Of a DNA stretch of 64,000 bases, positions 2,754 through 53,874 are shown piece after piece (within the stretch, counting starts at the first letter, position 1; every line of letters begins with the position of its first letter). Under the pieces are notes generated by a model. The model was not told the origin of the DNA and searched no databases. It was given only the letters and a program-made list of their open reading frames with translations. The DNA comes from Octopus sinensis (taxonomy: Eukaryota). The position numbers were made by a program, and so were the translations under genes. Where the stretch lies: positions 13,330,001 to 13,394,000 of the forward strand of contig NC_043021.1 in assembly GCF_006345805.1 (NCBI RefSeq), read 5' to 3'.

Positions 2754-3484
2754 ATCATGCAAAAAAAAAAAAAGAAAAAGAGACTGATTTGTAGGATCTT
2801 TGTTGATTTGGGGTTAAATAACAACAACAACAAGAATATGTTCTTGTGGTCCAACCCTGACAATAATCAGAGACATGGTAGTTGTACCAATTCTGTCTGT
2901 GTTCCAGTTACATATCCCAAAATCTGCACTATCCCACCATTTTAAAGATTTGGCTGCTATTTTCTGCAGAACAAGTGACCACATAGGTTCCCTCATTGGT
3001 TCCTAGTGGCAGTAGTAGTAGTAGTAGTAGTAGTAGTAGCAGCAGTGATGGTTAGATAGTTTATTACTTTTTATGAAAGAGCCAAATTGTTAACTGACAA
3101 TCGAAATTCCACAAACCAATAATTCTTGGAATTGTTGGTGCCAACAGAACAATTGAAAAATAACTCGATAATCTATACAAAAAAAATAACTTCCTACTGC
3201 CAAAATGCCAAACAAAATGCCTGGCAGAATTTAACCCATACATTAATAGACATGCATACTTCTATTTCTCTCAATGCGTGCACATGTGTGTGTGTGTGTG
3301 TGCGTGTGTACATAACTGTCATCATTCAACAACCGTTTTCCATGCTGGCATGGGTTGGACGGCATAACAGGAACTGGCCAGCTGAAGTGCTGCTCAACTT
3401 TCATGCCAGTTTTAGCATGGTTTCTACAGCTGGATGCCCTTCCTAACACCAAACACTTAACAGAGTGTACTGGGTGCTTGTACA

Positions 3485-3877
3485 ATGTTACTATTGTTTT
3501 TAGCCCCAGGAAGACATCTCCTCCAGCTGGTTAACGTCACATAGTCTGTGTCCAATTAGTATTTGCGAGGGGAGGTCATTGCTCCCGTCTCTAGCCTTAT
3601 GTGATACACACAAACCCAGGTTTCTGAGTAGTTACTCGTCTTCAGTGTGTGATAATCGCCAGCTAGTGATGAAAACTCATTTCACTCGCAAAGGAAGAAA
3701 TAAGTTATATTAAATCTCTGAGACGGGTAACTACCCAGAAACCTGGGTCTGTGTGTATCACATAAGGTTAGAGATGGGAACGATGACCTCCCCTCACAAA
3801 TACTAATTGGACACACACAGTGTGTTGTTAGCCAGCTGGAGGAGACGTCTTCCTAGGGCTAAAAACAACAGTAACAT
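3485..3877. mobile_element. Fold-back element (about 160-bp inverted arms, about 70-bp spacer) with hammerhead motifs; Penelope-like pLTR derivative
   Basis: Arm 3485-3645 is the diverged reverse complement of 3718-3877; both arms carry a hammerhead-like motif next to the spacer. Confidence 0.75.
3607..3651 (-). ncRNA. Minimal type-I hammerhead ribozyme motif
   Basis: Minus strand reads cacaca-CTGAAGA-c-gagt-aact-actc-a-GAAA-cctggg-TT-tgtgtg: 6-bp stem I, 4-bp stem II with a C.A mismatch at its base, short stem III, GUU site. Confidence 0.7.
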
Positions 3878-25998: not shown

Positions 25999-26986
25999 GA
26001 TAAAACATTGATTTTCTCAAATCATCAGTTCCAAAGTCTTTCTAAATTACTGATTTTCTTCGATTCAATGACAGCGGGACTGAACCTGAAGCCATATGCT
26101 AGGGAAGCAAATTTCTTGAAGGTAAAAATATGGGGGATGGTCATATTTAGAAGGTCTTTTATTTATAAATCTGCTTGATCAGAGGTGACCAATGGATAAA
26201 CATCAATATCAAAATAGTCTTTTACACATTCTTCTCTCTTTTTCCCCCACTCTCCCATTCTCTCTTCACTAACCATTTCATTCCTTTTGCCACCCCCAGA
26301 TGTAAATGGACTCTTCCAATATGTGACATTAAATTGCACTGCTGCAATGACATTTTAGTGACATAAAGGGGAAAGGGGTCATCATGACCACCATCATCAG
26401 GACCACCACTACCACCACCACCACCACCACCACCACCACCACCACCACAAACTCCATCACTGTCTTCATCCTCATCATCACCATTATTATCACAATCATC
26501 ATCACCACCACCACCACCACCACCACCATTACCCCATCACTACAAACACCATCATCCCCACCACCATCGCCATCATTAATCTGATAGCCTATTGGCAGAA
26601 TTGTTAGAATACCGGACAAAAACGCTTTGTGGTCTGTAGGCCTTTACAATCCAAGTTCAAGCCTTAGCTTCAGATTTCATTGTTTAAGGGTAAAAACAAA
26701 GGACCAGTTAAATACTGGGATAGAATTGATATGCTTATAATCTTATGAGATGCAAATGGGATTACAACAGAAAATGACAACTTATCTTGCCATTCATCCT
26801 TTGGGGGAGGGGGCTAAAATAAAGTACCAGTTATATACTAGGGTTGAGACAGTCTTCTGATGCAGTTTAGATGTGAATGGAATTATAATAGAGGACAATA
26901 TATCTATAACCTGGTTGGTGTGTCATGGCCTTGAGCAAGATGCTTCATTTCATGTAACTAAGACTACTCAGTTGAAATGAGTACAA

Positions 26987-27527
26987 GTTGGTGCAGCCTC
27001 TATTCCCACCATCTGAGTGTTGGTGCAGCCTCTATTCCCACCATCTGAGTGTTGGTGCAGCCTCCACTCCTTCCAGCTGAATGGTGGCGCAGCCTCCACT
27101 CCCTCAAGTTGAGTGTTGGTGCAGCCTCCATTCCCACCAGCTGAGTGTTGGTGCAGCCTCCACTCCTTCCAGCTGAATGTTCGTGCAGCCTCCACTCCAT
27201 CAAGCTGAGTGTTGGTGCAGCCTCCATTCCCACCATCTGAGTGTTAGTGCAGCCTCCACTCCTTCCAGCTGAATGTTGGTGCAGCCTTCACTCCCTCAAG
27301 TTGAGTGTTGGTGCAGCCTCCATTCCCACCAGCTGAGTGTTGGTGCAGCCTCCACTCCTTCCAACTGAGTATTCGTGCAGCCTCCACTCCCTCCAGCGGA
27401 ATGTTTGCGCAGTCTGCATTCCCTCAAGCTGAGTGTTGGTGCATCCTCCACTCCCTCCAACTGAGTGTTGGTGCAAACTTCACTCCTTCAAGCTGAGTGT
27501 TGGTGTAGCCTCCACTCACTCCAGCTG
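26987..27527. repeat. 32-bp minisatellite, 17 copies
   Basis: Unit gttggtgcagcctccactccttccagctgagt at exact 32-bp period, with no spacers. Confidence 0.95.
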
Positions 27528-27901
27528 TCACATGTTGGATGTTACACTGGATCACTGGTCGGAAGGCCTAGGGCCAGATATGAGCAACACCTTTCTCAAG
27601 AAGTAGGCCAAACTAGACACAGATCATCACCAAGCGGGCCACACTACTTGAAAAAAATTCAAGGAAGTTTTTTTTTCCATTAGGCGTACCATTCAGAAAG
27701 TGCGATGGGTCACAGTTTCCCCATTGACTGGTCTCGGGAGATATTATCTATGTTTGCTGGTGGCTTAAAAAGAGACCTAACTACAATTAGCAAAGAAAGC
27801 ATGGGACAAGTCTACCAAGTCATACGCAATTGGGAGTGACAGTTGCAGCTTCATACACTTACAACAAGTAAGGGCAACGGATAATTTTAATTTCGCTTTA
27901 T

Positions 27902-28566: not shown

Positions 28567-28789
28567 ATATATGTATGTATGTATGTACATTTATATATGT
28601 TTGTATGTACCTATATATGTATGTATGTACATATATATATGTATGTATATGTGTGTGTGTGCATAAAATATTTTCCAGTATTTTCAACACTTATGCATAC
28701 CTCACACAAATATAACACCTACATACAGATTTGGAATACTGAAACGAGCCAAGGTGCTTCAAGAAGACAGCTTTTAACCCTACCTTCCA

Positions 28790-29030
28790 TCACACATCCT
28801 GTGACCTCTTCAGCAACTCTCCATCCCATGTGTATCCTCCTGTCCTGTTTAGTTCATTCTGTTTTTCTGCGGTGTGTATCCTTATCTGTCCAGATAAGGA
28901 TACACACCATAGAATGACAGAATGAACGAAACGGGACAGGAGGATACACATGGGATGGAGAGTTGCTGAAGAGGTCACAGGAGGTGTGATAAAAGATTTC
29001 CAGACAAAGGGCACTAAAATATGAACAATA
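28790..29030 (+). mobile_element. Fold-back element (about 100-bp arms, 2-nt loop) with one-sided tail
   Basis: 28790-28888 pairs with 28891-28989 (centre ggtgtgtatccttatctg-tc-cagataaggatacacacc). The right arm plus tail recurs alone at about 47142-47210 and 61612-61710. Confidence 0.75.
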
Positions 29031-33116: not shown

Positions 33117-33130
33117 TATATATATATACA
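32590..33130. repeat. Long imperfect (TA)n/(TACA)n tract
   Basis: Directly visible; similar tracts at 23786-24280, 50200-50382, 51300-51525 and 56350-56665. Confidence 0.95.
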
Positions 33131-33357
33131 CTTTATTTTAAGCAGCAGAAAATTCAACAAAATCTGTTACTCTGAGTTTCTCGTTGCCGTTCATCAGACA
33201 GTTTTTGCTAGCAAAAACTGTCTGATGAACGGCAACGAGAAACTCAGAGTAACAGATTTTGTTGAATTTTCTGCTGCTTAAAATAAAGCATATTACTCTA
33301 CCACTGGTATTTGAGTACTCTTTTTTCCACCTTGTTTCACATTTATGTGTTTACTCC

Positions 33358-33359
<2 letters not shown>
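33131..33359 (+). mobile_element. Hammerhead fold-back family 1: perfect 158-bp palindrome plus 71-bp tail
   Basis: 33131-33209 is the reverse complement of 33210-33288 (centre gct|agc); tail catattactc...tttactccgg; flanked by (TA)n. Confidence 0.85.
33214..33260 (+). ncRNA. Minimal type-I hammerhead ribozyme motif (family 1)
   Basis: aaaa-ctgt-CTGATGA-a-cg-gcaa-cg-a-GAAA-ctc-a-gag-TA-acag-a-tttt; mirror copy on the minus strand at 33159-33205. Confidence 0.6.
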
Positions 33360-33397
<38 letters not shown>

Positions 33398-33855
33398 TAA
33401 TATATATATACATATATATACACATATATATATACATACATATATATATAACGATCCTCCATGTTTATTTTCATTCTGTTTCCTTGTTCGTCTCCACTGT
33501 CCTGTTTTTGTTCCTAACTTTGACCCTCCATAAGTCCCAAATTGTATTTTGTATTGTACATATGGGAGCAATTGTCTTATAAGACTCATATTGTTGTTGA
33601 ATGCTCAAAATGAGGAGTAGATAGACAGCCGACAACTGATGAAGGGTCGTTCTTTATGTTACTTGTCCTGTTTTCCATTTGTTTCTCTCATCGTTTGCAT
33701 ATTGAACTCATCTGCTTTCATATTTCATGTTGTTTACTGTGTTCTGAGTCAACCAAAGCCTTGGAAAAGGTCTGTAGTATGTATATATATATATATATAT
33801 ATACATATATATACATATACATATATATACATATACATATATATATATACATATT

Positions 33856-33972
<117 letters not shown>

Positions 33973-33979
33973 ATATATA

Positions 33980-34208
33980 CTTTATTTTAAGCAGCAGAAA
34001 ATTCAACAAAATCTGTTACTCTGAGTTTCTCGTTGCCGTTCATCAGACAGTTTTTGCTAGCAAAAACTGTCTGATGAACGGCAACGAGAAACTCAGAGTA
34101 ACAGATTTTGTTGAATTTTCTGCTGCTTAAAATAAAGCATATTACTCTACCACTGGTATTTGAGTACTCTTTTTTCCACCTTGTTTCACATTTATGTGTT
34201 TACTCCGG
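33980..34208 (+). mobile_element. Hammerhead fold-back family 1, second copy (849 bp downstream)
   Basis: Palindrome 33980-34137 plus tail, apparently identical to 33131-33359; hammerhead motif at 34063-34109. Confidence 0.85.
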
Positions 34209-34627
34209 TATATATATATATATATAATATATATATATACATACATATATATATATATATATACATATATATACATATATATATACATACATATATATAT
34301 AACGATCCTCCATGTTTATTTTCATTCTGTTTCCTTGTTCGTCTCCACTGTCCTGTTTTTGTTCCTAACTTTGACCCTCCATAGTCCCAAATTGTATTTT
34401 GTATTGTACATATGGGAGCAATTGTCTTATAAGACTCATATTGTTGTTGAATGCTCAAAATGAGGAGTAGATAGACAGCCGACAACTGATGAAGGGTCGT
34501 TCTTTATGTTACTTGTCCTGTTTTCCATTTGTTTCTCTCATCGTTTGCATATTGAACTCATCTGCTTTCATATTTCATGTTGTTTACTGTGTTCTGAGTC
34601 AACCAAAGCCTTGGAAAAGGTCTGTAG

Positions 34628-34662
<35 letters not shown>

Positions 34663-34821
34663 AATATTAGGGAATAAATCCAAACTTACAGGGAAAAATC
34701 AGATTTAGGATTGAATCCAATTTTATAGTAAAATATTATATTATATTATAAGTAAATTATTATTTTAGATTATATAGATTATTTATATCATAAAAATATT
34801 GATTATATTTTAGATTTGAAA

Positions 34822-34885
34822 CCACCTGAAGAATGTCTACTACTCAAAGATGTGATGAAAAGAAGACATGAAACGATCGTAGTGG
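34822..34885 (+). ncRNA. Type-I hammerhead ribozyme with canonical core and palindromic stem III
   Basis: ccac-CTGAAGA-atgtct-(25 nt)-agacat-GAAA-cgatcg-TA-gtgg: all three stems pair, GUA cleavage triplet; lies in an AT-rich segment (about 34660-34995) bounded by (TA)n. Confidence 0.8.
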
Positions 34886-35082
34886 ATATTAATAATTGTT
34901 AAATTTCTAAATAATATAAATTAATTTATGTATTGGATTAAGTCTTTCTTTGTTTGATTTGCATAATAGTGGTTTTGTCTCTAATTTAATATAATATATA
35001 TATATATATATGCATATACGTATATAGAGTGAGAGGTAGGTAGATAGATAGATAATACAGACAGACAGACAGACAGACAGAC

Positions 35083-35137
<55 letters not shown>

Positions 35138-35340
35138 TAGACAGATAGTTGATTTGTTTTGGCTCTGAAGAAGATAGCTTTGGGTTAGTGGGTCCTTATA
35201 ACTTCAGTCGATCAATCAATTGATCAATCAATAAGATTGAACCATGAATGCACTCAAACACCTATCTGGAATATCTGTAACTCTACAATAAATAAATAAA
35301 TAAATAAATAAATGCACATAACATACTATTTCTGTCTATG

Positions 35341-35379
<39 letters not shown>

Positions 35380-35522
35380 TATATGTATACATATCTATAT
35401 AAAAAAACCATAAGAAATGGAGCAATAATATCAGAAGTAGATCATTAGTGTTTTAAAGTCATTTAATAACAATGGATGCATCTATCCCTTAGATGGTTAC
35501 ATTACCTCTAACTTATATCTTA

Positions 35523-35555
<33 letters not shown>

Positions 35556-35561
<6 letters not shown>

Positions 35562-35666
35562 TTGAATTAATATATAAGTTCCATTCTAGCAAAAACTGTC
35601 TGATGAACAGCAACGAGAAACTCAGAGTAACAGATTTTGTTGAATTTTCTGCTGCTTAAAATAAAG
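35556..35666 (+). mobile_element. Hammerhead family 1, lone arm without tail
   Basis: Matches 48460-48569, ends at aaataaag, (TA)n on both sides; motif 35592-35638 has one stem II substitution. Confidence 0.8.
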
Positions 35667-35728
35667 TATATATATATATATATCACAATCAAGGAACGGC
35701 CATAATAGGCCATTCACCCACTAGAAAT

Positions 35729-35783
<55 letters not shown>

Positions 35784-35863
35784 TATATATAATATATATA
35801 TATATATAACATATATATAACATATATACATATATATACATACATAAATATATACATACATAC

Positions 35864-35914
<51 letters not shown>

Positions 35915-36126
35915 CACATATATATATGCACACGCACACGCATATATATATATATATATACATATATATGTATGTATGTGTGAATTCATATGATAGGATA
36001 TAAGGTGCTGAGGCGAATTTGACTAAAATCCTTCTCAGCAGTGCTCCAGCATGGCCACTGTCCAATGACTAATGCAAATGTCTAAAGACAAACGGATTTG
36101 ACATAGTGAACGTGATGATGACACTG

Positions 36127-36175
<49 letters not shown>

Positions 36176-37249
36176 AAGACAATAAACCAATCCCAGTGTC
36201 AGCTGTGTCATACAACTTAAATTCGCTTTCCATTGGGAAGTAACAGACCTACTGATCTACATTGCCAATCAAGGATGGGACTGAAGTAGAGGGGCGATGG
36301 TGGTGGTGGTGGTGGTGGCGGCAGCGGTGATGACAGGATAAGATGAGGCGACAGAAATCTATGAATAGAACCTGCATAATCATCATGGGTTGTGTTATCT
36401 CCTCTTCACTTCACTCCTCCTCATGCAACAAACCCCCCACAACTGCTTGTCATGTGTGTGACATATTTATACATGACAGGCACTCTTACGCACGCACGCA
36501 TGCACGCAAACACACGCACACAGATGCACATTCTTTTGTTCTTGTACTTGTTTCACTCATTCGACTGTGGCCATGCTGGAGCACCATCTTAAGCGTGTAG
36601 TCAAACAAATCGACCCGCATGACTTATTCCATAAACCCAGTACTTATTCTTATGTGCCGCCAGGGGTGGCCCTTCTGTTTGCCACCCCAGGACCCCACAA
36701 AAACAAAAAACACATATTTATTTCTTTATTGCCCACAAGGGGCTAAACATAGAGGGGACAAACAAGAACAGACAAAGGGATTAAGTCGATTGCATCGACC
36801 CCAGTGAGTAACTGGTACTTAATTTATCGACCCTGAAAGGATGAAAGGCAAAGTCAACCTCGGCAGAATTTGAACTTAGAATGAAACGGCAGACAAAATA
36901 CCGCTAAGCATTTCGCCCGGCGTGCTAACGGTTCTGCCAGCTCGCCTAGTACTTATTCTATCAGTCTCTTTTGCTGAACAACTAAGTTACGGGGATGTAA
37001 ACACACCAACACCATGGGCTAGATGGTTTGACTGGAGCTGGTAAGCTGGAAAGCTGCACCAGGTTCCAAGATGTTTTGGCTTGTTTCCCACAGATGGATG
37101 CCCTTCCTAATGCCGACCAAGATACCAGGTATCTTTTACATGTCTGGTGCATGGGTGCCTTTAACGTATCACTAAAAGGGGCGGGAGTAAAGGGACTGGG
37201 AAACGACTCCTAGTAATTTCATATTCCTGAAAAGACAACAAGAAAAAGA

Positions 37250-37780
37250 CAAGTACAAGGGATATGGAATGTGCATGGGTGTCGTACAAGGGAGCTAAAG
37301 AGGAGAGAAATAGGGAGTGTGATGATGAGGAGAAGGATGGATGTGCTGGCACTGAGTGAAGGCAGTAGAAGCAGGGGCAGACCTTGGTTTGTGTGGATGG
37401 ATGGAGTGAGGAAAGCTTTAGTGGTTAGAGGTGCCGGAGATAAAGAGAGAGGCAAGAGAGTTTATAAACGATAGGAAAGCTTGGAGAGTGTTTGTGGATG
37501 GATGGATGAATGAATTTGATGTTGCTCAAAGGGGTACGGAACCAGCACGATGCTGCAGGGGTAAGCCAGCATATGCTGTCGGGCCCCACTGCTGATATTG
37601 GGGGTTGTGCTCTATGCCTTGACCCGAGCAGAGAACGGGACTCACCTCTTTGAGCTGGGAAATGAATGGAATGCCCGGTGTATGTCTTGTTGTGGCAACC
37701 CCACTCCTAAAAAAAATGGGGAATAGGCCTGTGACTGAGAGGGCAAGAGTAACCCCTAGATAAGTCTGCCACGGGGTTAA
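37250..37780 (+). mobile_element. Internally deleted RTE-clade LINE remnant
   Basis: WNVHG...DVLALSE (APE endonuclease N-terminal motifs) joined in frame to SRGRPWFVWMDGVRKAL, then DRKAWRVFV in another frame (RTE ORF C-terminus), followed by a probable 3' UTR. Confidence 0.7.
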
Positions 37781-38034
37781 GCCCCCTCACTCCACCCCCC
37801 ACCACACCGAATATTACTGGTGCTCGTTTTCAACAAGATGGACCAAAGCAACATGGAGTGAAGTGTTTTGCCCAAGGAAATGACAGTGCTTGGTATGAGA
37901 ATCAGACAAAACGATCTTAAGAACATGAAGTCAGTATCCTGAACACAGGAACACGCGACCATACTTAACATAGCAGGCATTAGTGCGTTAATGGGACACA
38001 ATGTATTGTCCTTTGTTGCAGTGGATTTCAAAAT

Positions 38035-38490
38035 TCCACCAGCACTATCAATGCCGCCATCATCACCACCACTCTCACCACTGCTAATAACACCAACGCC
38101 ACTACCATCACCCCCCCACCACCACCACTGTTGCTACTGCAGATGCTGCTACCACCACTATTGTTACCACTACTACTGCTACTACCACCAACAACACCAG
38201 CAGTGCTGCTGCCACAACCACCACCAATGCCACTATCACCATAATCACCACCTCCACCACCACCACTGCAGCTACCATTACTGTCACCACTATTTCTGCT
38301 ACAACTACCACTTTCACCATAATCACCAGTACCCCACCACAACCACCACAACCAACACCACCCTCACCATTATCACCACCACCACCATCACCACCACCCC
38401 ACACCACTATAATCACTACTACCCCACCCCCACCCCACCATTATCACCACTACTACCACCACCACCATCACAACTATTAACACCACCACA
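38035..38490. repeat. (ACC/ATC/ACT)n trinucleotide low-complexity tract
   Basis: Directly visible; similar tracts at 26380-26575, 31740-32180 and 55130-56165. Confidence 0.9.
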
Positions 38491-38584
38491 TGTATAAAAC
38501 AAAAGTTAATTCATGATGATGTGCACATTGTTGTCTGCATATGATAGGAGTGTCAGGATATTGAAGTTGAAAAAAAAAAATAAA

Positions 38585-38615
<31 letters not shown>

Positions 38616-39594
38616 TAAATAAATAAAACGACAAAGCTCAAGAGCTTCTTGAATCATGCCATTGTGGTTTCCCAGCTGAATACAAGAGTTCCAGTGTTAG
38701 AGTCCACCAACATAGAATGGCAAAAAAAAAGAATAGAAACAAGGAGACAGTTGGAGTGATGTTAAGCTTATTCTAAACAAAACCGTGATGTCATTCATAG
38801 ATCGAGACGAAAGATTCAGGGACATGGATTTTAGAAGGGATGAAAGATAAATTCGCCATCACCATCATCATGACTATTACCATTGCCGTCGGCATTACCC
38901 CACCTGTGAAAATCATGCCAAAACTGACCTCGCTTACATTGGGGCCATGTAAAAAGCACTCAGTCCACTCTGGGGAGTGGTTGGTGTTAGGAACGGCATC
39001 CAGCCATAAAAACCCTGCCAAAACAGACACAGTAGCCTGGGGTACCTGGAGTACTCTTCTACCTGACTGGCTCCTGTCAACCATCCAACCCATGGATGCA
39101 TGGAAGACGGACGTTTAATGAAGATAATGATGATAATGATGATGATAATGATACGTGTGTTCAACCCATGCTAGCATGAAAAACGGACGTTAGAGAAGGA
39201 TGATGATGACATATATACGTTATTTGTATGTTTATGTATCTATGGATTTAAGAGGCCTTTGTTGGTGTCCAGAGGCATTTGTAAATAAATGAATAAAAGA
39301 TTACTTGTCCATAAAAATCAAACACTTTCTGTCACTTGAATATTTATATTTTTTTCCCTCAACTCACTTTCATGTCATTTGTGCAAATCAATGCATTCTG
39401 CTCTTGTTTTTGCATATATCTAAGTTTCTCATTCTAGTGGAGACGAAATATGGCAGCTACTATGCTGATGAAATCAACTGAGATAGGAACAATGCTAGCA
39501 TGGGTTACCCCACCCCCCACACTCGATTTGCCATGCTGGACCACTGAAATCTACAAGCTTTTTTCATTGTCTCTCTGTTTATTTCTTCTTATTC

Positions 39595-39630
39595 CTTTCT
39601 GTTGAAGAGCATAGGCTTGAAACGTAAAAG
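39595..39630 (+). ncRNA. Minimal hammerhead-like motif, variant core (CUGUUGA)
   Basis: cttt-CTGTTGA-a-gagc-atag-gctt-GAAA-cg-TA-aaag. Confidence 0.5.
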
Positions 39631-39788
39631 ACCTTTACATTTTTTTGCCAAGCATCAAAATAACACGCTTGTTGTTCATACACCTGTGTTCATCTTTTGT
39701 TTTTCTCTAAACTTCAACTATATATGTATATATGTGACCTCGTGTGTACCGTTGGCGATTTTTTTTCCTCTGTCTTCCCTTCTCCTAT

Positions 39789-39823
39789 GTTTCCGATGAA
39801 GAGCTCCGCTCGAAACGTTAAAC
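39789..39823 (+). ncRNA. Minimal hammerhead-like motif, variant core (CCGAUGA)
   Basis: gttt-CCGATGA-a-gagc-tcc-gctc-GAAA-cg-TT-aaac, inside a repeat (39733-39910) that recurs at 53062-53260. Confidence 0.55.
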
Positions 39824-41775
39824 CCTCCTTCTTTCCTGAGCATCCAATAATACTATATTTGTTCCCCGTCCTCGCGTTGTTGTGTTTTTTTGTGCTTTCT
39901 TGTTTGGATTATGTATGTATGTATGTATGTATGTATGTATGTATGTATGTATGCATGCATGCATGCATGCATGCATGTATGCATGTATATGTATGTGTGT
40001 CTGTGTATATATATTGTCTACTTTGGAAACGGTTCCTATGGTTTGATGCTCTTCTCAATGCCAGCTATCTTACAGCAAGTACCAGATGTGTTTTTTTATG
40101 CCACCATCACTAGTGAAGTTACCCTGAAGCTTGCATGATGTTGAACCAAGAGCAACAGCTTTGTGCTGGGAGACGAAGGGTTAAAACATGAAGAATGAAG
40201 CCAGGACAGAACAGGCTTTTTGCTGTACAGGAGCTACAAGTTACGTACGTACATACATATACACATACATGGTGGTTGTCTATTCCTTATGCAGAGTCTG
40301 ACCACCTCTTGTACCAATACCTTACATCCATCTGATATCTGATGTGGGTTTTTTTAAAACCAATGTACTGAAAAGACACCCAAATAGATAGCATATCTGA
40401 TTTGGACCACCAAGAGCTGCATACATACATTACATACATCCATCATCATCACCATCAAATGTCCGTTTTCCATGCTAGCATGGGAAGGAGGGTTTAACTG
40501 GTAAGGCCTGGGGCTGCACCAGACTCCATTGTCTGTTCTGACATGGTTTCTATGACTAGATGCTCTTCCTAAAGCCAACCACTCCACAGAGTGTACCAGG
40601 TGCTTTTTATGTGGCACCAGTATCAATTCTACTGTAGCAGATGGATCTTCTTGAGTACAAAAAGGTGCCAGATATCTCGGTCCTCTGTCATCTGCTTCAA
40701 AAGGCTTAGTGTCTTGAGATCAGCCTTCAATACTCATACCATGTCTTCCTGAATCTCTCTCTTCCACAAGTTCCATCCAAATATATATTTATATATAGAC
40801 ACGTACACACACACAAACACACACATGTTAGTGGGAATATATTTCTAATATGTTCTAATTTCTAAAGATGTGCCGGCGGAACATAAAAAACTCCATTCAA
40901 GCATGGTCGTTGCCAGTGCTGCCTGACTGACTCCCGGTGGCATGTTAAAAGCACCATTCGAGCCTGGTTATTGCCAGTGCTGCCTGACTGGTCCTCATGC
41001 CGGTGGCACGTAAAAAAGCTCTCACTAAACTCTCAGAGTGGTTGGCATTAGGAAAGGCATCCATCCAGCTGTAGAAACTTTGCCAGATCAGATTGGAGCC
41101 TGGTGTAGCCTTCTGGATTGCCAGTCCTCAATCATACCTTCCAACCCATGCCAGCATGGAAAGCAGATGTTAAAAATGATGATGATGATGAATGTCAATG
41201 CAGTTAGCTGTGGAGAAATATTCTCACTTACAGTAAAGGTTTAGATACACCTCTATCAGCTCAGTGGCATCCTCTTTTGGATCCCTAGCAGAATTAATAT
41301 CTCATTAATAGGGGATGTCAATAAAAGATGACCAATAGCTGACTGAAAAGCTATGACTTTATAGTCAAAAAGTCAATGTTAGTGACTAATTTGCACCTGT
41401 TGACAGGTAGAGGTGTGTGGCTCAGTGGTTAGGGTGTTGGGCTCGTGATTGTAAGGTTGTGGGTTTAATTCCTGGACCAGGCATTGTGTTGTGTTCTTGA
41501 GCAAAACACTTCATTTCATGTTGCTCCAGTTCACTCAGCAAAAATGAGTAACCCTATGATGGCTTGGCATCCAGTCCAGATGAGGAACTTATATGTCATG
41601 CAATCCAGGAAACCGGCCCTTACGAATCTGACCTGATTCAAGAAGATGATGCAACTTTACTTGTTGACTGCCAACTCACAACAAATACATAAGTAGCAAT
41701 GTGAAGCGATGAGGAGAAACAAACTTTAGATATATTGGATGGCCTGGGGGCCAGAAGCACACTAGAAGTACTCTA

Positions 41776-41810
<35 letters not shown>

Positions 41811-41946
41811 ATATATATTATATATATATGAATATATATTTGCACACACATATATATCTATCTATCTATGTCTATCTATCTATATATATCTATATCTATC
41901 TATATGCACACACACACACGCATGAATCTATCTATCTATCTATCTA

Positions 41947-42007
<61 letters not shown>

Positions 42008-42478
42008 TGTGTGTGTGTGTGTCAGTGTGTGTGTGTGTGTCAGTGTGTGTGTGTGTGTCAGTGTGTGTTCATTTTAAAGTAGATGCCTCTCTTTGCTGTC
42101 ACTACTCTGAATTTCCAACCTTGAAGTAAGAGAGATCATTAATATTTGGCAAACGACACTAGGAAGTAATAAATCTTGTATTATGTCACCATATTTTAGT
42201 AATTGTGTCGACACACAGACATCAATCATCTGATACAAAAACACACTTCTGTATTGGGGTGACAGTAAAAGAGTTAGTCAGACATTATTTTTAGAACCGG
42301 TGATTATGGCATCGAATAGCAATAAGACTAAATGCTTTTTGATTCTCACCTAAATTTTTCTAAATAGTTTCTTCAGTTGCCTTGTTTGTGAGTTTTGTAG
42401 GTTATGTTTTGAAACAAGATAGTCCAGTATTTGGAGCTGTTTTTTTTTTTTTTAATGGTGCTTAATTCAAAAAATGTG

Positions 42479-42793
42479 GAGGCACAATGGCCCAGTGGTT
42501 AGGGCAGCGGACTCGCGGTCGGAGGATCGTGGTTTTGATTCCCAGACCAGGTGTTGTGTGTGTTTATTGAGCGAAAATACCTAAAAGCTCCACAAAGCTC
42601 CAGCAGGGGGTGTTGGCGACCCCTGTGGTACTCTTTCACCACAACTTTCTCTCACTCTCTCTTCCTGTTTCTTGAGTAATGCTGCGATGGACTGGTGTCC
42701 TGTCCAGCTGGGGGGAACACATACGCCATAGAAACTGGGAAACTGGGCCCATGAGCCTAGCTAGGCTTGAAAAGGGTGAAAGAAAAAGAAGAA
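42479..42793 (+). mobile_element. SINE family D, full length
   Basis: tRNA-like head, ctgcgatggactggtgtcctgtccag segment, same tail as the 23117 copy. Confidence 0.8.
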
Positions 42794-43543
42794 TTCAAAG
42801 AATACAACAAAGCATCAATAGCAAAGTTAAGTTTGGCAGAGTGTGTTAGAGCATCAAATAAATTGTTTTGCAGTATTTATCCTGAATCTCAAAGTGCTGG
42901 GTTCAAATCTTGCCAAGGTCAATGTGGCCTTGCACCTTTTCAGTATTTATACGTAAAATAGCATGAAGTTGGTGGTTCAGAAGTCTGCTTCTCAACCACA
43001 TGGTTCCTGGTTCAGTCCCAATGCATGGCACCTTGGGTAGGTGTCTTCTACTTTACTGACCAAAAGCCTTGTGAGTGAATTTGTTATGCAGAAACTGTGT
43101 GGAAGTCCACTGTGCACATACACGTGTGTGTTTGTGCCACCACCACCACCACCAAAACCCCCACCACCACCAAGACACCACCACCACTACCACCATGTGA
43201 TGACCAGTGTTAGTTTGTTTATGTCCCTATAACTTAACAGTTCATCCAAAAATACTGACAGAATAAGTTCCAAAATTAATAAAACAAGTCCTGCGTTTAA
43301 TCTGTTTGACTAAACCCTTCAAACCAGTGACCCAGCATGGCCACACACAATCTAATGACAGATACAAATTAAAGATATGAGTGTGTATGTGTGTTTGTGT
43401 GTAGTTGTGTGTGTAAACACACATACACACACACACACACACACACATTGATGTCTGATTCTATATTCAGTTATAATAAAAACAATTTTTCTTTAATCAG
43501 AGGGATTACTTTTGTAGATTACAAATGTATTATTCTTATACAC

Positions 43544-43861
43544 GAATGTTGTTGACAGTGACTTCGAAGTTTCAACCAGCTAAGCCCATTGTTAGAATAT
43601 CTGACAATAGCTTTGCTGGCCAAAACTTTGAAGTCACTGTCGACAACATTCCTCTTTAAGAATAATATATGAAAAGTTTTATCATCACTAATTGTGACCA
43701 CGGGTGCCCCGTATTACAAGAAATAAGAGTCAAAAACTCTTAATGCTATAAGAAGGACACAATATATATACACTAACTGTGTGCTTCTGACAGAATTAAG
43801 AGGTTTTAACTCTTATTTCTTGAAGTACAGGTACTTCAGCATCCTCCATCACAATTAGTGA
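43544..43861. repeat. Two adjacent small inverted-repeat (MITE-like) elements
   Basis: 43544-43651 has 29-bp arms with 2 mismatches. 43685-43861 has terminal tcactaattgtga/tcacaattagtga plus inner caagaaataagagt/actcttatttcttg arms. Confidence 0.7.
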
Positions 43862-43933
43862 CAATAAAAAATTTCCTTTATGGCATTATATGGCGCCTAA
43901 CTGTTTACATTAATTATATATATATATATATAA

Positions 43934-43999
<66 letters not shown>

Positions 44000-45683
44000 A
44001 GACCCTTTTGGTCATGGATGACCATGGGATTTGCTCCTAGAAAGTTACCCTCCCAGGCACAAGTCCAGGCAAGGGTGTTTATGGAAGACCCATGCATGCC
44101 GGCCTCCTCTCTCCACGCCACCAGTGTTATCCAAGAGAAAGGCAAAGGCGATACAGCTTGGCACCTGTGACATCGCAACTCATTTCTACAGCTGAGTGTA
44201 CTGGAGCAATGAGAAATATAGTGTCTTGCTCAAGAACACAACACATAGCCCGGTCCGGGATTCAAACTCACAACCTCGCGATCGTAAGCTCAACGCTCTA
44301 ACCACTGATGTATATATTACATCATATGTAATCAAACCTAAGTTTGTTTTTGAAGCACTGAAACGTATTGTAGCACAAGTAGAAAGATATATTTTTTGAA
44401 CGCGTAAAATACTGATATAACAGTATATATGGGATAATATCCCTTACAGAGCAGAAAAATTTGTCAGTAACCAGCATCTTGCAGCTCACCTGCGATAGAC
44501 CGGCGTCCCATCCAGGTGGGGAACCTATACGCCAAGGAAACCAGGAAAACCGGCCCTATGAGCTAGGCATGGCTCGAGAAGGAACAAAAACAACATACAA
44601 TCATGAAGAAACAAATATCTAAGATAGGCGTGGCTGTGTGAAGCTCACTTCACCACCAGAGGTCTGGGTTCAGTCCCACTGCATGACACCTCGGGCAAGT
44701 ACTTTCTACTATAACTCCAGGTCAACCAATGTCTTATGAAGGGATTTGGTACATTGAAACTGTGTGGAAGCCCATGGTCCATATAATTTACATATGTGCC
44801 TGTGTTTAGTTCCAACTGCCACCACTTGACGACTGGTGTTGGTTTGTTTATGTCCCCATAACTTAGTGAAGGAACAAAAGAAAATGTTAGAATAAATACC
44901 AAGCTAAATGATAATTAAAAAAAGTCCCGGGGATGATTTGTTCAACTAAAACCCTTCGAGGTGGTGCTCCAGCATGGCTGCAGTCCAATGACTGAAACAA
45001 GTACAAGATAAAAGATAAAATATATATGGACCCTCTCATACAATGAATGTTCCAATCATTTCCTTAACACAACTATATAATCATTGAATTATAATGTAAG
45101 TGGCCGAATATTCCACATAGACGTAATGCTCTAGTAGGCCTAGGTACAATCTGAGTTGCTACACAGTCTTCTGTCAACCCAATTTCATCCACAACACTTT
45201 GATCAATATACTGCAGTTGTAGAAGACACTTGGTGCAGTATGCCAAAGAGGAAGATCGAACTCAGAACTTCGAGTCTGAAATGAACCTTTGTAATTACTT
45301 AACCACGAAACTATTCTTTAAAGAAGTGGTCTACAACTTTTGCACCACAGTCCCGTGTTGTGCAAAACAATTTTTTCTAAGGACTATGGGATCACACACA
45401 TAACACAATAAAGGGAGCTGGTGACACGTAAAAGGCAGCCGTACCAGTGACACGTAGAAGACACCCAGGGCACTATGTGAAGTGGTTGGCGTTAGGAAGG
45501 GCATCCAGCTGTAGAAACGAAGTCAAAACAGACGACTGGAGCTTAGTGCAGCACTTCAGCTTACGAGCTCTGGTGAAACCGTCTTACCCATGCTAGCACG
45601 GAAAACGGGCGCTAAATGATGATGATGATGATATATAATATATAGAATATATATATATACAACGTTAAATGTTATAATGCATA

Positions 45684-46118
45684 GGCGCAGGAGTGGCTGT
45701 GTGGTAAGTAGCTTGTTTACCAACCACATTGTTCTGGGTTCAGTTCCACTGCGTGGCACCTTGCGCAAGTGTCTTCTACTATAGCCTCGGGCTGACCAAA
45801 GCCTTGTGAGTGGATTTGGTAGACGGAAACTGAAAGAAGCCCGTCGTATATATGTATATATATATATATATAATATATATATATATAATATATATATATA
45901 TGCGTGTGTGTGTTTGCGTGTCTGTGTTTGTCCCCCTAGCATTGCTTGACAACCGATGCTGGTGTGTTTATGTCCCCGTTACTTAGCGGTTCGGCAAAAG
46001 AGACCGATAGAATAAGTACTGGGCTTACAAAAGAATAAGTCCCGAGTTGCTCGATTAAAGGCGGTGCTCCAGCATGGCCGCAGTCAAATGACTGAAACAA
46101 GTAAAAGAGTAAAAGAGA
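45684..46118 (+). mobile_element. SINE family A, full length
   Basis: Family A consensus. Confidence 0.9.
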
Positions 46119-46641
46119 ATATATATGCAAATGCATCCAACGAATTACGATGGTCAATAAAATACAAATAAAATTTTTAAAATTTATTCTTCCTCTGCGG
46201 CCCGATGATTGAGACCTTTACTTTAGATTACAGAATCATTTACATCCAGAAAGTTTGGTCAGTTCGTACGCCTTGGGGAGACGAGAACACTTGACAGAAA
46301 AAAAAAATGATATTTGATTTCAATTTCTTTTTCCTTTTCACTGGGTACGATGATGTCGTTGTCTATTAACTGAGGATGGAATGGGAAGCAATGTTGTTGA
46401 TGCCTCTCCTCCAAAGGGTAATTAAAAGCAAAGTCAAAGGCAACGGTTACAGAATCGTAGATCGTTCAATATAACTGTCTTCAGGAAATTCACGTTAACT
46501 ATATAAGTGAAGGGAGGTAACTCTAAATGGAGTACTGTAAAGTCACATGCATTATCGTTCTTAGACGGAAGATAACGCGTTACAATTTTAAGCATCATGA
46601 AGAGTTAGTACGCTTACATACATACGAATACCATTTACATA

Positions 46642-46682
<41 letters not shown>

Positions 46683-46684
<2 letters not shown>

Positions 46685-46933
46685 GCAATCTCTCGACTAT
46701 CGCGGTGTTACATTCCAAAACCTCCCGCGACAGGTGAAAATCCGCGAAGTACATACAGTACTGTACTGTATATATTTTAAAATTATTCTTATAATTTATA
46801 TATATTTACTTTAATCATAAATGCAAAACAACACCACAGAGGAATCGACGCAAGCTTAAGTAATTAACCGCGATAGGTGAACCGCGATAGGTGAACCGCG
46901 ATAGGTGAACCGCGATATGGCGAGGGATTACAG
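46683..46933. mobile_element. Tigger-like MITE
   Basis: TIRs cagcaatctctcg / cgagggattacag; internal 14-bp repeat aaccgcgataggtg, about 3.5 copies. Confidence 0.75.
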
Positions 46934-47969
46934 TGTGTGTGTGTGTGTGTGTGTATACATACGTTTCTGAATTTGTGTTGCGAGGTTCCTGATGCGAACC
47001 CGTGTGTTGAAACAGATATTGTTTGTATTTCGGGACGGTTTTTTTTTTAATGAAATAAACACACGTACTATATGTTCGTTCTTCACTCAATTATTACTTA
47101 TCCCAATAAGCGGAGCAAGAGTCCACAAGAAGATGGTAGGTGTTGCTGAAGAGGTCACAGATGTGTGACGAAAGATTTCTGGGCAATGGACATGATTGTT
47201 AGAATAAGAACATGTATTTATTGGGAGGGGGGGGGAATGACCGTCCCGAAATATAACAATATGGGGAAGGCCGGTTTATGGGATTACCTTAGGTTTCCCA
47301 TCCATAAAGGGTTTAGCTTTGTGGCGTATAGTCATATACATATGTGTGTGTGTACTCATACATGTATGAGCACACGTCTTTATATTTACAGTGTCGAAGC
47401 TGATTAAGCATCAGATTTAACTCCTGTGATAATTACATGTGACGATGCAAGACAACGTGAGCTCCATAAACAGTGGGGAGGGAAGAGAGTGGAGGGAGAA
47501 AGAAGTCGAAGGCCAAGGTTTGGGCATTTTCTTTAGCAAAGACAATCTGTAACATATCAGCTGCCTCGCGATCTCCACTTGGTCCAACGGCAGCACTCCC
47601 GAGACAATTGGAGCAATCGTTCCAACGTCGGAGTTGTTGAAACTACGTGACCTACTTCCGCTTGTTATGTCGGACTTTGGACCTGATAATAATCCTGGCT
47701 TTGCATACGACAGGCGTTGGCGACAGCTGTCCTAGATGTCACGCCGAGTCTCCAAAGGAAAACGGGGAGTCTTTTACTGACTGATTCTAAGGAGTTGCCC
47801 CTGTCGGGCTCAGATACACGCACAGAAATTCGTACACAGAGACAGGAACATACGCATGCACACAGCTGCGCATATACATATTTAAGCGTACAGACACACA
47901 CATGCACGGAAAATACGCACATATATACATATTTTACGAATTATTTATATATATATATATATATATACA

Positions 47970-48640
47970 CTTTATTTTAAGCAGCAGAAAATTCAACAAA
48001 ATCTGTTACTCTGAGTTTCTCGTTGCCGTTCATCAGACAGTTTTTGCTAGAATGGAACTTATATATTAATTCAATCTATACCCTTACAAACGCTACACCT
48101 TTAAAAGGAATGGACTTGTTTGATTGGCCCTTTAAAAAAAACGGTCAATCTTCGAGCGATAAACAAAAAGGTCAAAAAATATGTATATATATATAAAAAA
48201 ACTTATAAAAATTATAAAATCCGAGGAAAAACCGAGGAAAAAACCTATTGCCGTTAATGAAGACAGTACATTAACGGCAATAGGTTTTTTCCTCGGTTTT
48301 TTCCTCGGATTTTATAATTTTTTAATTTTTATAAGTTTTTTTATATATATATACATATATTTTTGACCTTTTTGTTTATCGCTCGAAGATTGACCGTTTT
48401 TTCTAAAGGGCCAATCAAACAAGTCCATTTCTTTTTAAAGGTGTAGCGTTTGTAAGAGTATAGATTGAATTAATATATAAGTTCCATTCTAGCAAAAACT
48501 GTCTGATGAACGGCAACGAGAAACTCAGAGTAACAGATTTTGTTGAATTTTCTGCTGCTTAAAATAAAGCATATTACTCTACCACTGGTATTTGAGTACT
48601 CTTTTTTCCACCTTGTTTCACATTTATGTGTTTACTCCGG
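47970..48640 (+). mobile_element. Hammerhead fold-back family 1, longest copy (about 290-bp arms, 9-nt loop, 71-bp tail)
   Basis: 47970-48259 pairs with 48269-48569, with a few substitutions and small indels; tail 48570-48640; (TA)n on both sides. Confidence 0.9.
48495..48541 (+). ncRNA. Minimal type-I hammerhead ribozyme motif (family 1)
   Basis: Same motif as 33214-33260; predicted cut after GUA at 48532; mirror copy on the minus strand at about 47997-48044. Confidence 0.6.
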
Positions 48641-48858
48641 TATATATATATATATATATATATTATGAATTTGAGGTAAAACATTTTACCTTCGCCCATA
48701 TAATACAATAAATGAATTAATTGCATTGCAATTCTTAGCATTTATGTATTAGCCTTTCTGGGTACTTTACTGGCAGTATATTGGATAAATGATATCCCAT
48801 AGTGGGTTATACTCATAACCCCTATCTCACTTTGTACTTTTATATATATATATGTATG

Positions 48859-48899
<41 letters not shown>

Positions 48900-49149
48900 T
48901 TACACCTATATACATATATAGAGTTTATGCATATTCATACACACAAAAATAGTTAAATATCCGGGAACACATAGTACAGTTGCTTATATGTTAATGTTTG
49001 TACATTTATGTTTATGCACAAACACACATTGACACATGTCTATACATAATACACATACAGACGTGTGTCTGTATATATACATATAAATATATATAGACGC
49101 GCACACACACAAATTGATACATACGTAGTTATGTAAATACACACATATA

Positions 49150-49832
49150 TTGGGTTATCCCATAAATAATGCGGGGTTTTTTCAATTGCATGAACTAAAA
49201 GTCAGAGGGAGACGGGATAAACTACCTGCATCAACTTGCTATAAAAGTAGGTAGTAATGTTACCTTAAACTTATTCTTAGTGCAAGTTTCGGAGAGTGCA
49301 GTTCGATATTAAAATTTATTTTTTTCAAAGCTATAATGGAAGTGACAAAGGAGCATATTCGGCATATTTCGCTTTCTGAGTTCAATAAAGGCAACAACGC
49401 AACGAAAGTTCGAGGAATATTAATGCAGTATATGGGGACCGGGCAATAAGTGCAATCCAGTGTCAATGGTAGCTCCAGAAACTCCGAGCCGGGAACTGCA
49501 GCCTAAGAAGATCTTTAGCGCTCGACGGAGACGTCCTGTAAACCCAGGTGGAACGAAATCTCATGGTAATTGTTGAGGAAGTAGTAGAGAAGACAACTGT
49601 AGAGTATATTTTCGATTAAAAAAGAACTATAATTATATTGAACGATCTACGATTCTGTAGCCGTTACCTTTGACTTTGCTTTTAATTACCCTTTGGAGGA
49701 GTGCTTTTAATTACCCTTTGGAGGAGTGGCATGAACAACACTGCTTCACATTCCATCCTCAGTTTTCTTATCTTAATTTTGAAAAATAAAGGAAATATAA
49801 TAAAACCCCGCATTATTTATGGGATGACCTAA
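49150..49832 (+). mobile_element. Internally deleted mariner transposon
   Basis: 31-bp TIRs ttgggttatcccataaataatgcggggtttt / aaaaccccgcattatttatgggatgacctaa; upstream TA. Confidence 0.9.
49336..49592 (+). pseudogene. Mariner transposase N-terminal (HTH) remnant
   Basis: MEVTKEHIRHISLSEFNKGNNATK, frameshift, RNINAVYGDRAISAIQCQW*LQKLRAGNCSL: typical mariner N-terminus with a stop and frameshifts. Confidence 0.85.
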
Positions 49833-50258
49833 GAGATAGATAAATATTTACACGCACTCACACACACGTTTATATAAATATTTACACATTCGTTTATGCA
49901 CACACATACATTTAAACGTAATAGAGACATATAAATAACACATTTATGTGCAAACACGCACACATACACGTGCATAATACATACAGACGTATTTAAGCAG
50001 ACATACCTATATAAGTATCTGTGCATATATTGATGCACACACACAATGCATACATATATATATACAAATTGAAGCATCAATATATGCACACACACACAAT
50101 ACACAAATATATACAAATTGAAGCAGAAACACACATCTCTATACATATTTATGCATACACACATGCGCATGTATACATCCATGCTTAATACACACACATA
50201 TATATATATGTATATATATATATGTGTATGTATATATATATATATGTGTATGTGTATA

Positions 50259-50307
<49 letters not shown>

Positions 50308-50332
50308 GACATATACATATATAGATATACAT

Positions 50333-50371
<39 letters not shown>

Positions 50372-50772
50372 ATATATATATTCATGCTTATTTTATTGAT
50401 CCCAGAGGGAGAAATGGTAAAGAGAGTGTCAACAGCACTTGAACACAGAACAGATCATAAAATGAATGCATTAAAATCTAGCAATCATTTAAGACATATG
50501 CTTCTCTGGTTCTGCTAATTAACATGCTCTCTCTCTTTCTCTTTCTCTCTCCTCTCACACACACACACATACATACATACATACATGCAGGTAGTCCCTT
50601 TCACACACATATACAAGCATTCACTCATTCACATAGACAAGCACACACTCAAACATGCACTTCAGCACTGCCGGCAGCCTTGTCTTGGGAAAGGAAAGAA
50701 GATGAATTACTAAAACGTAAATTAGTAAGAACTTATTAACAAGGCTACATGTGTGTGTGTGTGTGTGTGTGT

Positions 50773-50811
<39 letters not shown>

Positions 50812-50889
50812 TGTGTGTGTATATCATATATACATATATATGTATGTACTTATGTATGTGCATGTGTGTGTGTTGTATGTATATATATA

Positions 50890-50929
<40 letters not shown>

Positions 50930-51526
50930 TTAAAAAATATCACACACACACACATAACGTCCCCCCCACACACACACATGCAACAACCCCCTCCCCCCAC
51001 ACCACCAAACTAAAGTGGAATAATAAATCTTCTTTAAGGTACAAAATAATCCCAGTCCTTATATAAACACTACAAAGTGGCTACTGAGTCACTTTGTTGT
51101 TTTTTTTTTAACTTTTGTGTTTCACTTCAGATTTTAGAAAGATAAGACAAGATCCTGTTCAGTAGGCCAAACTGGTTATCAGGTGGAACTCTGGTTATTT
51201 ATTGTAGGAATGAGTTAAATGTCCAGTCTTACAGGAGTCATAAATTGGGGAGTGAATAAAACACGCCATGTGTGCGTGTATAAGTATATGCATTTATATG
51301 TGTGTGTTTGTGTATACATATATATGTGTATGTATATATGTATATATGTATGTGTGTGTATATGTATATATATATGTATATATGTGTGTGTATAAATATG
51401 TATATATATGTATACATATATATATATGTATACATATATGTATATATATGTATACATATATGTATATATATATATGTATATACATATATATATATATGTA
51501 TATATATATGTATATATATATATGTA

Positions 51527-51770
51527 CTGGAGTAAACACATAAATGTGAAACAAGGTGGAAAAAAGAGTACTCAAATACCAGTGGTAGAGTAATATGCTT
51601 TATTTAAAGCAGCAGAAAATTCAACAAAATCTGTTACTCTGAGTTCTCGTTGCCGTCATCAGACAGTTACCTTGCAAAGCAACCTCTATTCTAGCAAAAA
51701 CTGTCTGATGAACGGCACGAGAAACTCAGAGTAACAGATTTTGTTGAATTTTCTGCTGCTTTAAATAAAG
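51527..51770 (-). mobile_element. Hammerhead fold-back family 1, reverse-oriented copy
   Basis: Tail 51527-51597, arm 51598-51668, short unrelated spacer, opposite arm about 51688-51770 ending aaataaag; (TA)n-rich flanks. Confidence 0.85.
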
Positions 51771-53774: not shown

Positions 53775-53874
53775 NNNNNNNNNNNNNNNNNNNNNNNNNN
53801 NNNNNNNNNNNNNNNNNNNNNNNNNNNNNNNNNNNNNNNNNNNNNNNNNNNNNNNNNNNNNNNNNNNNNNNNNN
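53775..53874. other. Assembly gap (100 N)
   Basis: Run of exactly 100 n. Confidence 1.

Follow-up and report, generated by a model that had tools for sequence, protein, structure and literature searches.

A fold-back in Octopus sinensis DNA probably made of two head-to-head, 5'-truncated end copies of a likely Hydra-clade Penelope-like element

Within a 64-kb window of Octopus sinensis DNA (the whole stretch analysed here, 64,000 nucleotides), positions 47970-48640 form a near-perfect fold-back that is bordered on both outer sides by (TA)n (Table 1). The left arm (47970-48259, 290 nt) and the right arm (48269-48569, 301 nt) align with 287 matches, three substitutions and four gaps of 1, 1, 8 and 1 nt. 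Nine nucleotides lie between the arms, and a 71-nt tail is attached to the right arm only. This alignment bears out a first-pass annotation of the sequence, which had described arms of about 290 and 300 bp, a one-sided tail of 71 nt and TA flanks. The RNA fold predicted for the fold-back reaches -463 kcal/mol, compared with -121 +/- 6 kcal/mol for 15 shuffles. No target-site duplication was readable within the (TA)n flanks.

Table 1. Coordinates of the fold-back, its sequence elements and the other family copies in the window
Feature	Position	Strand	Remark
Left (TA)n target flank	47946..47969	.	Last bases CA
Likely tail-less 5'-truncated pLTR copy (inverted arm)	47970..48270	-	Includes the 9-nt "loop" and a 2-nt overlap with the tailed arm
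Type I hammerhead motif of the inverted arm	48003..48040	-	Predicted cut after 48007
9-nt "loop", upstream element sequence of the tail-less arm	48260..48268	-	Loose-end match in 3 of 4 runs
Tailed arm, likely 5'-truncated pLTR copy	48269..48569	+	The family's fixed tail-less 3' end lies at 48569
CCAATC, candidate promoter motif	48411..48416	+	In 4.6% of 1000 shuffled arms
TATATAA, candidate TATA box, variable among copies	48474..48480	+	In 6.3% of 1000 shuffled arms
Type I hammerhead motif of the tailed arm	48499..48536	+	Predicted cut after A48532
AATAAA adjoining the tail-less end	48563..48568	+	In 23% of 1000 shuffled arms
One-sided 71-nt tail	48570..48640	+	Likely first bases of the next unit in a partial tandem
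Bulged stem-loop in the tail	48575..48598	+	5-bp lower stem, 4-bp upper stem, 3-nt loop, 3-nt 3' bulge
Right (TA)n target flank	48641..48663	.
Family copy B	33131..33359	.	81-nt tail-less arm and 152-nt tailed arm, joined via a 4-nt CTAG overlap
Family copy C	33980..34208	.	Tandem duplicate of B including flanks
Family copy D	35556..35666	+	Single tail-less 5'-truncated copy in (TA)n; stem II broken by one change
Family copy E	51529..51770	.	Left tailed arm, 16-nt spacer, right tail-less arm

The fold-back is one of five family loci, all within 33131-51770, and BLAST of the 64-kb window gave no others. Copies B and C have their flanks in common over about 670 bp and so represent either a duplicated insertion or a duplicate made in assembly, which reduces the independent insertions to four at most. 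The earlier count of five loci in about 19 kb is thus correct as a count, but not as a number of independent events. Reference position 48569 is the 3' limit of all tail-less arms in the window, and 48638-48640 that of the tailed arms; the 5' ends vary (48260, 48269, 48459, 48483, 48489 and 48497). Exactly one tail is present in each of the three independent inverted loci; the fourth insertion is single and tail-less. TA-rich microsatellite starts all ten flanks of the five loci. In two separate insertions the dinucleotide CA separates the tail-less end from the (TA)n flank (47968-47969 and 33129-33130), and plain TA is found there in duplicate C.

The family also recurs in public sequence runs: 20 of the 24 runs listed (13 studies, nine coded organism labels) contain 71-91% of the sampled words, and no run is recorded as RNA. 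Four of them (X1, X3, X14 and X16), all in the form of contigs, were compared in detail. Behind 48574 the loose ends of matching contigs, read over 30 letters each, become (TA)n in all four runs (at least 76, 2, 4 and 4 contigs among the best-supported rows), and behind 48637-48643 they do so in three of the four, again among the best-supported rows. Both 3' ends are therefore family-wide. At the other extremity, three runs (X1, X3 and X14) have loose ends 5' of 48269 whose last bases are the nine inter-arm nucleotides in reverse complement, plus two bases more. It follows that these nucleotides are upstream element sequence of the tail-less arm and that the arms overlap by 2 nt; the length of the loop had been given correctly in the first-pass annotation, but it is not a spacer. 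One X3 contig carries the element about 191 nt further 5'.

By identity, the 14186 X1 contigs divide into 2530 at 99% or more, 5656 at 95-99%, 5474 at 90-95% and 526 below that, and the window therefore carries a young branch of an older family. The description of the family as young and abundant thus applies in its second part to the whole and in its first part only to a subfamily, the 2530 contigs alike at 99% or more. A-to-G differences at four places were considered as editing and rejected, since run X1 has the same differences, which makes them subfamily alleles. A rise in depth toward the tail in X14 and X16 was not used as a measure of expression, these being contigs whose RNA origin is only a guess. 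The element is near-identical under the nine coded organism labels, with no difference over 202 nt in a contig of organism B (X3); close species, labelling or transfer might each account for this.

Each arm carries, on its own strand, the type I hammerhead motif that had been annotated there, with cores at 48503 (+) and 48036 (-). In the tailed arm it is composed of stem I CUGU/ACAG, the core CUGAUGA, a 2-bp stem II with a GCAA loop, GAAA, and a stem III that is the palindromic ACUC-A-GAGU. The conserved core (CUGANGA, GAAA, UH) is present; the canonical G10.1-C11.1 pair is absent, its place at the base of stem II being taken by A opposite A. A hammerhead descriptor found nine matches in the window, eight of them from this family, versus none in 30 shuffled windows. 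Rfam gave no match at gathering score in the window, and its 28 sub-threshold matches in 47900-48700 include no hammerhead family, the best being hairpin-shaped miRNA models. Position 48519, the 3' partner at the stem II base, is the sole position in the 38-nt hammerhead that varies at 5% or more (depth-weighted in X1, G 38% and T 21%), so that the copies have A.A, A.G or A-U there (48519 = A/G/T).

The 2-bp, GCAA-capped stem II with its A.A mismatch is as first annotated; such a mismatch is not exceptional, as 15 of 25 Hydra-clade hammerheads in the published table are mismatched at the same place. According to our count from PMC8557442, the stem II base in these 25 families is U.U in 14, U.C in one, G.U in two, A-U in one and G-C in seven. 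The combination of A.A with a 2-bp stem II does not occur in that table, where stem II has at least 3 bp, mostly with U.U or G-C. With T at 48519, the sequence of stem II (48510-48519) equals loop 2 of Penelope-2_NV, which may be chance. Lunse et al. reportedly described small hammerhead variants of Penelope-like elements (PLEs), which may already cover forms with a very short stem II.

Taken together, these features lead us to read the palindrome as two head-to-head, 5'-truncated end copies, likely of the pLTR of a Hydra-clade PLE, which likely arose in one RT event in (TA)n and are likely immobile alone; we put the probability of this reading at roughly 80%. The first-pass annotation had proposed an inverted pLTR pair of an abundant Penelope-like family, and the two fixed 3' ends, the variable 5' ends, the one-sided tail, the (TA)n target and the Hydra-like ribozyme agree with it. 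Traits of Penelope-like (EN+) elements found here are the variable 5' truncation with fixed 3' ends, the inverted copy with one-sided tail and the hammerhead motif in the pLTR. Traits of the Hydra clade are the insertion into (TA)n, a preference of 26 of the 27 listed Hydra families (PMC8557442 supplement), and an AC-initial palindromic stem III, often combined with an unpaired stem II base, a hammerhead trait that is our reading of the 25-family table and not a formal definition by its authors. A stem III of the form ACUC-N-GAGU is present in 5 of these 25 families (PMC8557442), against none of 56 metazoan hammerheads in Fig. S3 of PMC4209133.

Of the known elements, the closest is Hydra-2_Amil of the coral Acropora millepora (Craig et al. 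2021, PMC8557442), which has the (TA)n target in common with the octopus element; the sequences were compared by eye. Both have stem I CUGU/ACAG, the core CUGAUGA and a cut after A, and stem III of Hydra-2_Amil is ACUC-G-GAGU. In both, a type I hammerhead lies near the 3' end, a tail hairpin is followed by ACT, and the tail-less end falls 30-40 nt behind the ribozyme. The 29 positions in common, used as a motif, give eight matches in the window and none in 100 shuffles. The 3' region upstream of the ribozyme differs, being longer in the octopus element and not alike that of Hydra-2_Amil. Hydra-1_Obim has a different hammerhead and is not this element. An annotation of repeats in Octopus vulgaris lists 31 recently active Penelope-like families, and its main text has no mention of hammerheads (PMC13282606). 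In our assessment both the clade and the arrangement are known, and the family is new.

Among the alternatives at the level of identity, a PLE from outside the Hydra clade, from Neptune or Penelope/Poseidon, whose hammerhead arose by convergence is unlikely, though it has some points in its favour. Neptune too favours microsatellites (PMC8557442), and one hammerhead each of Drosophila willistoni and a shrimp likewise combines a missing G-C pair with a palindromic stem III (PMC4209133). The protein marks of the Hydra clade, in elements of under 3 kb, are RWK, DKT and a CxCX5C linker without CCHH (PMC8557442); no ORF of the octopus element was recovered from the window frames and collection scans covered here. 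Against this, the likeness to Hydra-2_Amil spans 29 ribozyme positions and continues into the tail hairpin.

An artefact of assembly or library preparation (a mirror read), or a single insertion inverted locally at a later time, is very improbable. Perfect hairpins sequence poorly, no contig among the matches listed in the four runs bridges the 48259-48269 junction, and B and C may themselves be an assembly duplicate; yet the arms differ at seven places and end at two family-wide 3' boundaries, the loop holds element sequence missing from the other arm, and the same plan recurs at three independent loci. Equally improbable is a MITE, a fold-back DNA transposon or another short element moving as a fixed palindromic unit, which the long inverted arms, the TA flanks and the lack of coding capacity might suggest, because arm length (81-301 nt), junction and tail side vary among loci, one copy is single, the outer ends are asymmetric, the hammerhead is conserved and of retroelement type, and the fixed TIRs of a DNA transposon, named at the outset as evidence that would speak against a Penelope-like pair, are not seen.

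The arrangement of our likely Hydra-clade pair has close precedents. Complex insertions of EN+ PLEs (Arkhipova et al. 2013, PMC3846280; Craig et al. 2021) show head-to-head copies with a palindrome or short overlap at the junction, a tail at one end and strong 5' truncation, as found here. They differ in that their tail usually measures 30-40 nt, as opposed to 71 nt, and in that both octopus copies are cut back to the pLTR only, unlike the published insertions. Moreover, PAc, a Poseidon element of Anolis carolinensis (Frangieh et al. 2024, PMC11167929), shares two 3' ends bounding a tail, an AT-rich target, a hammerhead in the pLTR and a stem-loop in the tail region. PAc has a coding tail and an ORF whose start lies within the hammerhead, whereas the frame from the ATG of the hammerhead core closes here after 18 codons; Hydra ORFs begin further downstream than this ATG (PMC8557442).

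The minimal, dimer-type hammerheads of PLEs (Cervera and de la Pena 2014, PMC4209133) also have the type I core, short stem I and palindromic stem III, but the octopus motif departs from them in lacking the G10.1-C11.1 pair and the lone bulged base. Pairs of hammerheads on opposite strands, 100-700 bp apart, are recorded from Schistosoma (PMC4209133). Non-LTR retrozymes (preprint 10.64898/2026.07.22.740005) are tandem, whereas the copies in the window are inverted or single, the only direct repeat being the duplication that includes the flanks.

The tail contains a bulged stem-loop, 48575-48598, which folds as UACUC-UACC-ACU-GGUA-UUU-GAGUA. Within 48570-48600 the only variant at 5% or more is at 48584, inside the hairpin loop. 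The hairpin alone is not unusually stable (z -1.7; 18 of 200 shuffles fold as well), and the case for it therefore rests on its recurrence. In a comparison by eye, a similar hairpin was found in four of six new Hydra consensus sequences: three carry it in their tails (Hydra-2_Amil, Hydra-2_Ajap and Hydra-1_Crog, the last with one mismatch), and the complete consensus of Hydra-1_Ajap begins with two such hairpins. These published counterparts have a lower stem GCUC/GAGC, a variable upper stem and a 2-nt 3' bulge followed by ACU; the upper-stem sequences differ with pairing kept, that is, by compensatory changes as judged by eye. The remaining two of the six consensus sequences stop 30-40 nt behind the ribozyme, to be compared with 33 nt for the tail-less arms here. 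No similar hairpin was seen by eye at the start of Hydra-1_Obim. We found no earlier description of the hairpin in the passages on tails of PMC8557442 or among the matches listed in searches of openly accessible literature.

These matches, among them the opening of the complete Hydra-1_Ajap consensus, suggest that the tail represents the beginning of the next unit and bears a conserved structure. The hairpin may be an RT-recognition signal that marks where copying starts. More tentatively, and at less than even odds by a good distance, its general form (RCUC/GAGY, variable upper stem, 3' bulge, ACU) could be a clade-wide Hydra cis signal that positions a dimeric RT, whose two cDNAs, from two nicked strands and two start sites, would join head to head.

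How such a pair might form is indicated by published work, in which an inverted 5'-truncated pLTR with a junction palindrome and an optional tail at one end is an established layout (PMC3846280, PMC8557442). In vitro, the PAc protein nicks and extends both strands of AT-rich DNA, and its RT, a predicted dimer, starts at two internal sites that bound the tail near the stem-loop (PMC11167929). By analogy, the RT/GIY-YIG protein of the octopus element would bind the tail region of an RNA running through the pLTR and would nick both strands of the TA tract. One cDNA could then be primed on each target strand, with starts at 48569 and at 48640; both cDNAs would terminate at about one 5' position on the template and be joined at their 3' ends, by the 2-nt overlap in the reference copy, by the CTAG overlap in B and with the 16-nt insertion in E. 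The hammerhead would act in transcripts of the parent element. We consider this two-cDNA step, one cDNA per target strand and modelled on PAc, an even bet. In PAc the two strands showed no difference in RT start site (PMC11167929), and one tail per pair is therefore not forced by the model.

Alternatively, and with a probability that we set short of even, a single cDNA might fold back and self-prime the second strand, a later endonuclease cut removing the tail of one arm; this competes with the two-cDNA step only and concerns the same element. Despite differing truncation points, the two arms of each of the three inverted insertions have 5' ends only 0-14 nt apart, and snap-back accounts well for such near-equal lengths; the junction of the reference copy lies at an imperfect natural hairpin of the element. 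Self-priming has been proposed for rotifer Penelope (PMC3846280), and resolution by the endonuclease has been proposed for the tail (PMC8557442). However, an arm-loop-arm strand would start at the tail-less end, which leaves the tail without a template unless an extra cut is made, and the 16-nt spacer of copy E is absent from the reference arm. Contigs of X16 and X1 have strand-change or replaced joints whose sides are 34-50 nt apart, and all four differences between the arms in 48368-48569 fall on one arm (an X3 contig identical to the right arm being taken as outgroup), a weak point given a chance of 0.125. Two loci have unequal arms, and at each of them the tail-less arm exceeds the other by 9-14 nt; the junction polarity rests on these two informative loci.

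If the hammerhead is functional, its cutting is predicted to be inefficient. Stem III has a pair probability of 0.00 in the monomer, where it is not stable, and the self-duplex of two copies is worth -7.4 kcal/mol. The active dimer fold (-12.4) is less stable than a core-blocking alternative (-15.2), and weak or protein-assisted cutting is therefore expected. The folding models thus predict weak cutting by a dimer formed through the palindromic stem III, which may take place only when a protein assists, and weak or protein-assisted cutting has been reported for metazoan PLE hammerheads (PMC11167929, PMC4209133; review PMC6765202). Since the two motifs of the locus are on opposite strands, they cannot pair with each other as a dimer. 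In the RNA of the full fold-back, none of the nine ribozyme pairs tested has a probability above 0; in the model, both ribozymes would be locked in about 290 bp of dsRNA within a read-through transcript. The palindrome is therefore a source of dsRNA at most, and not a double ribozyme.

The CCAATC motif noted about 90 bp upstream of the ribozyme core is indeed present, at 48411 and 92 nt from the core. A TATA-like motif lies between the two, with three positions in or beside it varying among the copies; in Hydra-2_Amil a TATA-like run is likewise upstream of the hammerhead. By analogy with Drosophila Penelope, for which a promoter has been shown in the corresponding region (PMC2377424), a candidate promoter in the pLTR is plausible. 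The proposal that AATAAA supplies a 3'-end signal fared less well: it lies 1 nt from the tail-less DNA end with no poly(A) behind it, and it is absent at the matching place of the Hydra-2_Amil consensus. An AATAAA is also present in 23% of shuffled arms, and a role as poly(A) signal was rejected as unsupported.

We searched for a coding partner of the pLTR. Pfam was run on the 150 longest of the window's 419 complex reading frames and detected neither RT nor endonuclease; five of the 150 had weak hits, all below curated cut-offs and none to RT or GIY-YIG. Scans for the ribozyme motif gave no match in viral contigs or prokaryote genomes and, in metagenomes, two contigs that represent one locus with no long ORF, so that neither these 150 frames nor the collection scans yielded an RT/GIY-YIG partner or an ORF-bearing copy. 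The metagenome locus (L001:620-1000 and L002:1300-1680) has the same stems I and III with U.U at the stem II base, and a decayed inverted partner about 260 bp away.

The palindrome is ordinary debris of a known class of retroelement, and its value is as material. The inverted copies and one-sided tails of PLEs are an open question named in PMC8557442 and partly answered in PMC11167929, and an abundant family with short, readable junctions could separate the two-cDNA from the snap-back model. The tail hairpin offers a concrete candidate RNA signal for the little-studied Hydra clade. If the proposal of a hairpin-guided dimeric RT is true, it would explain the inverted-plus-tail signature of PLEs in one step, and in a very abundant family whose hammerhead has a 2-bp stem II it would be testable on thousands of junctions. 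The host would also be supplied with many ready-made long dsRNA hairpins, as such palindromes would give long dsRNA if transcribed; a lizard Penelope and a palindromic repeat of frog are reportedly subject to heavy A-to-I editing (PMC5625713).

Other repeats in the window were recorded in passing. Copies B and C lie in a tandem duplication with a period of about 850 bp (33131-33790 and 33980-34640) that also contains a second repeat of 340 bp; the differences between its halves are almost confined to microsatellites, which makes an assembly duplicate possible. A second hammerhead-like repeat at 34822-34888 (+), with one copy in the window and likewise in (TA)n, has stem I CCAC/GTGG, the core CTGAAGA, a palindromic stem III and a long stem II that starts ATGTCT as in Hydra-1_Obim. 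Another head-to-head inverted pair, at 3460-3870, carries at 3645 (-) a core resembling that of a hammerhead; its decayed partner matches at about 90% over the 82 nt compared. A further family (28784-29013, 47146 and 61649) has a CTGAAGA core and a GGTCAC/GTGAC stem, its two copies near 28.8-29.0 kb being inverted. The window also contains a 32-bp minisatellite at 26891-27623 with 16 registered copies, a gap of 100 N near 53800, and ten dispersed copies of a 145-nt SINE-like segment between 2403 and 61136, which are 66-84% alike to their reference copy.
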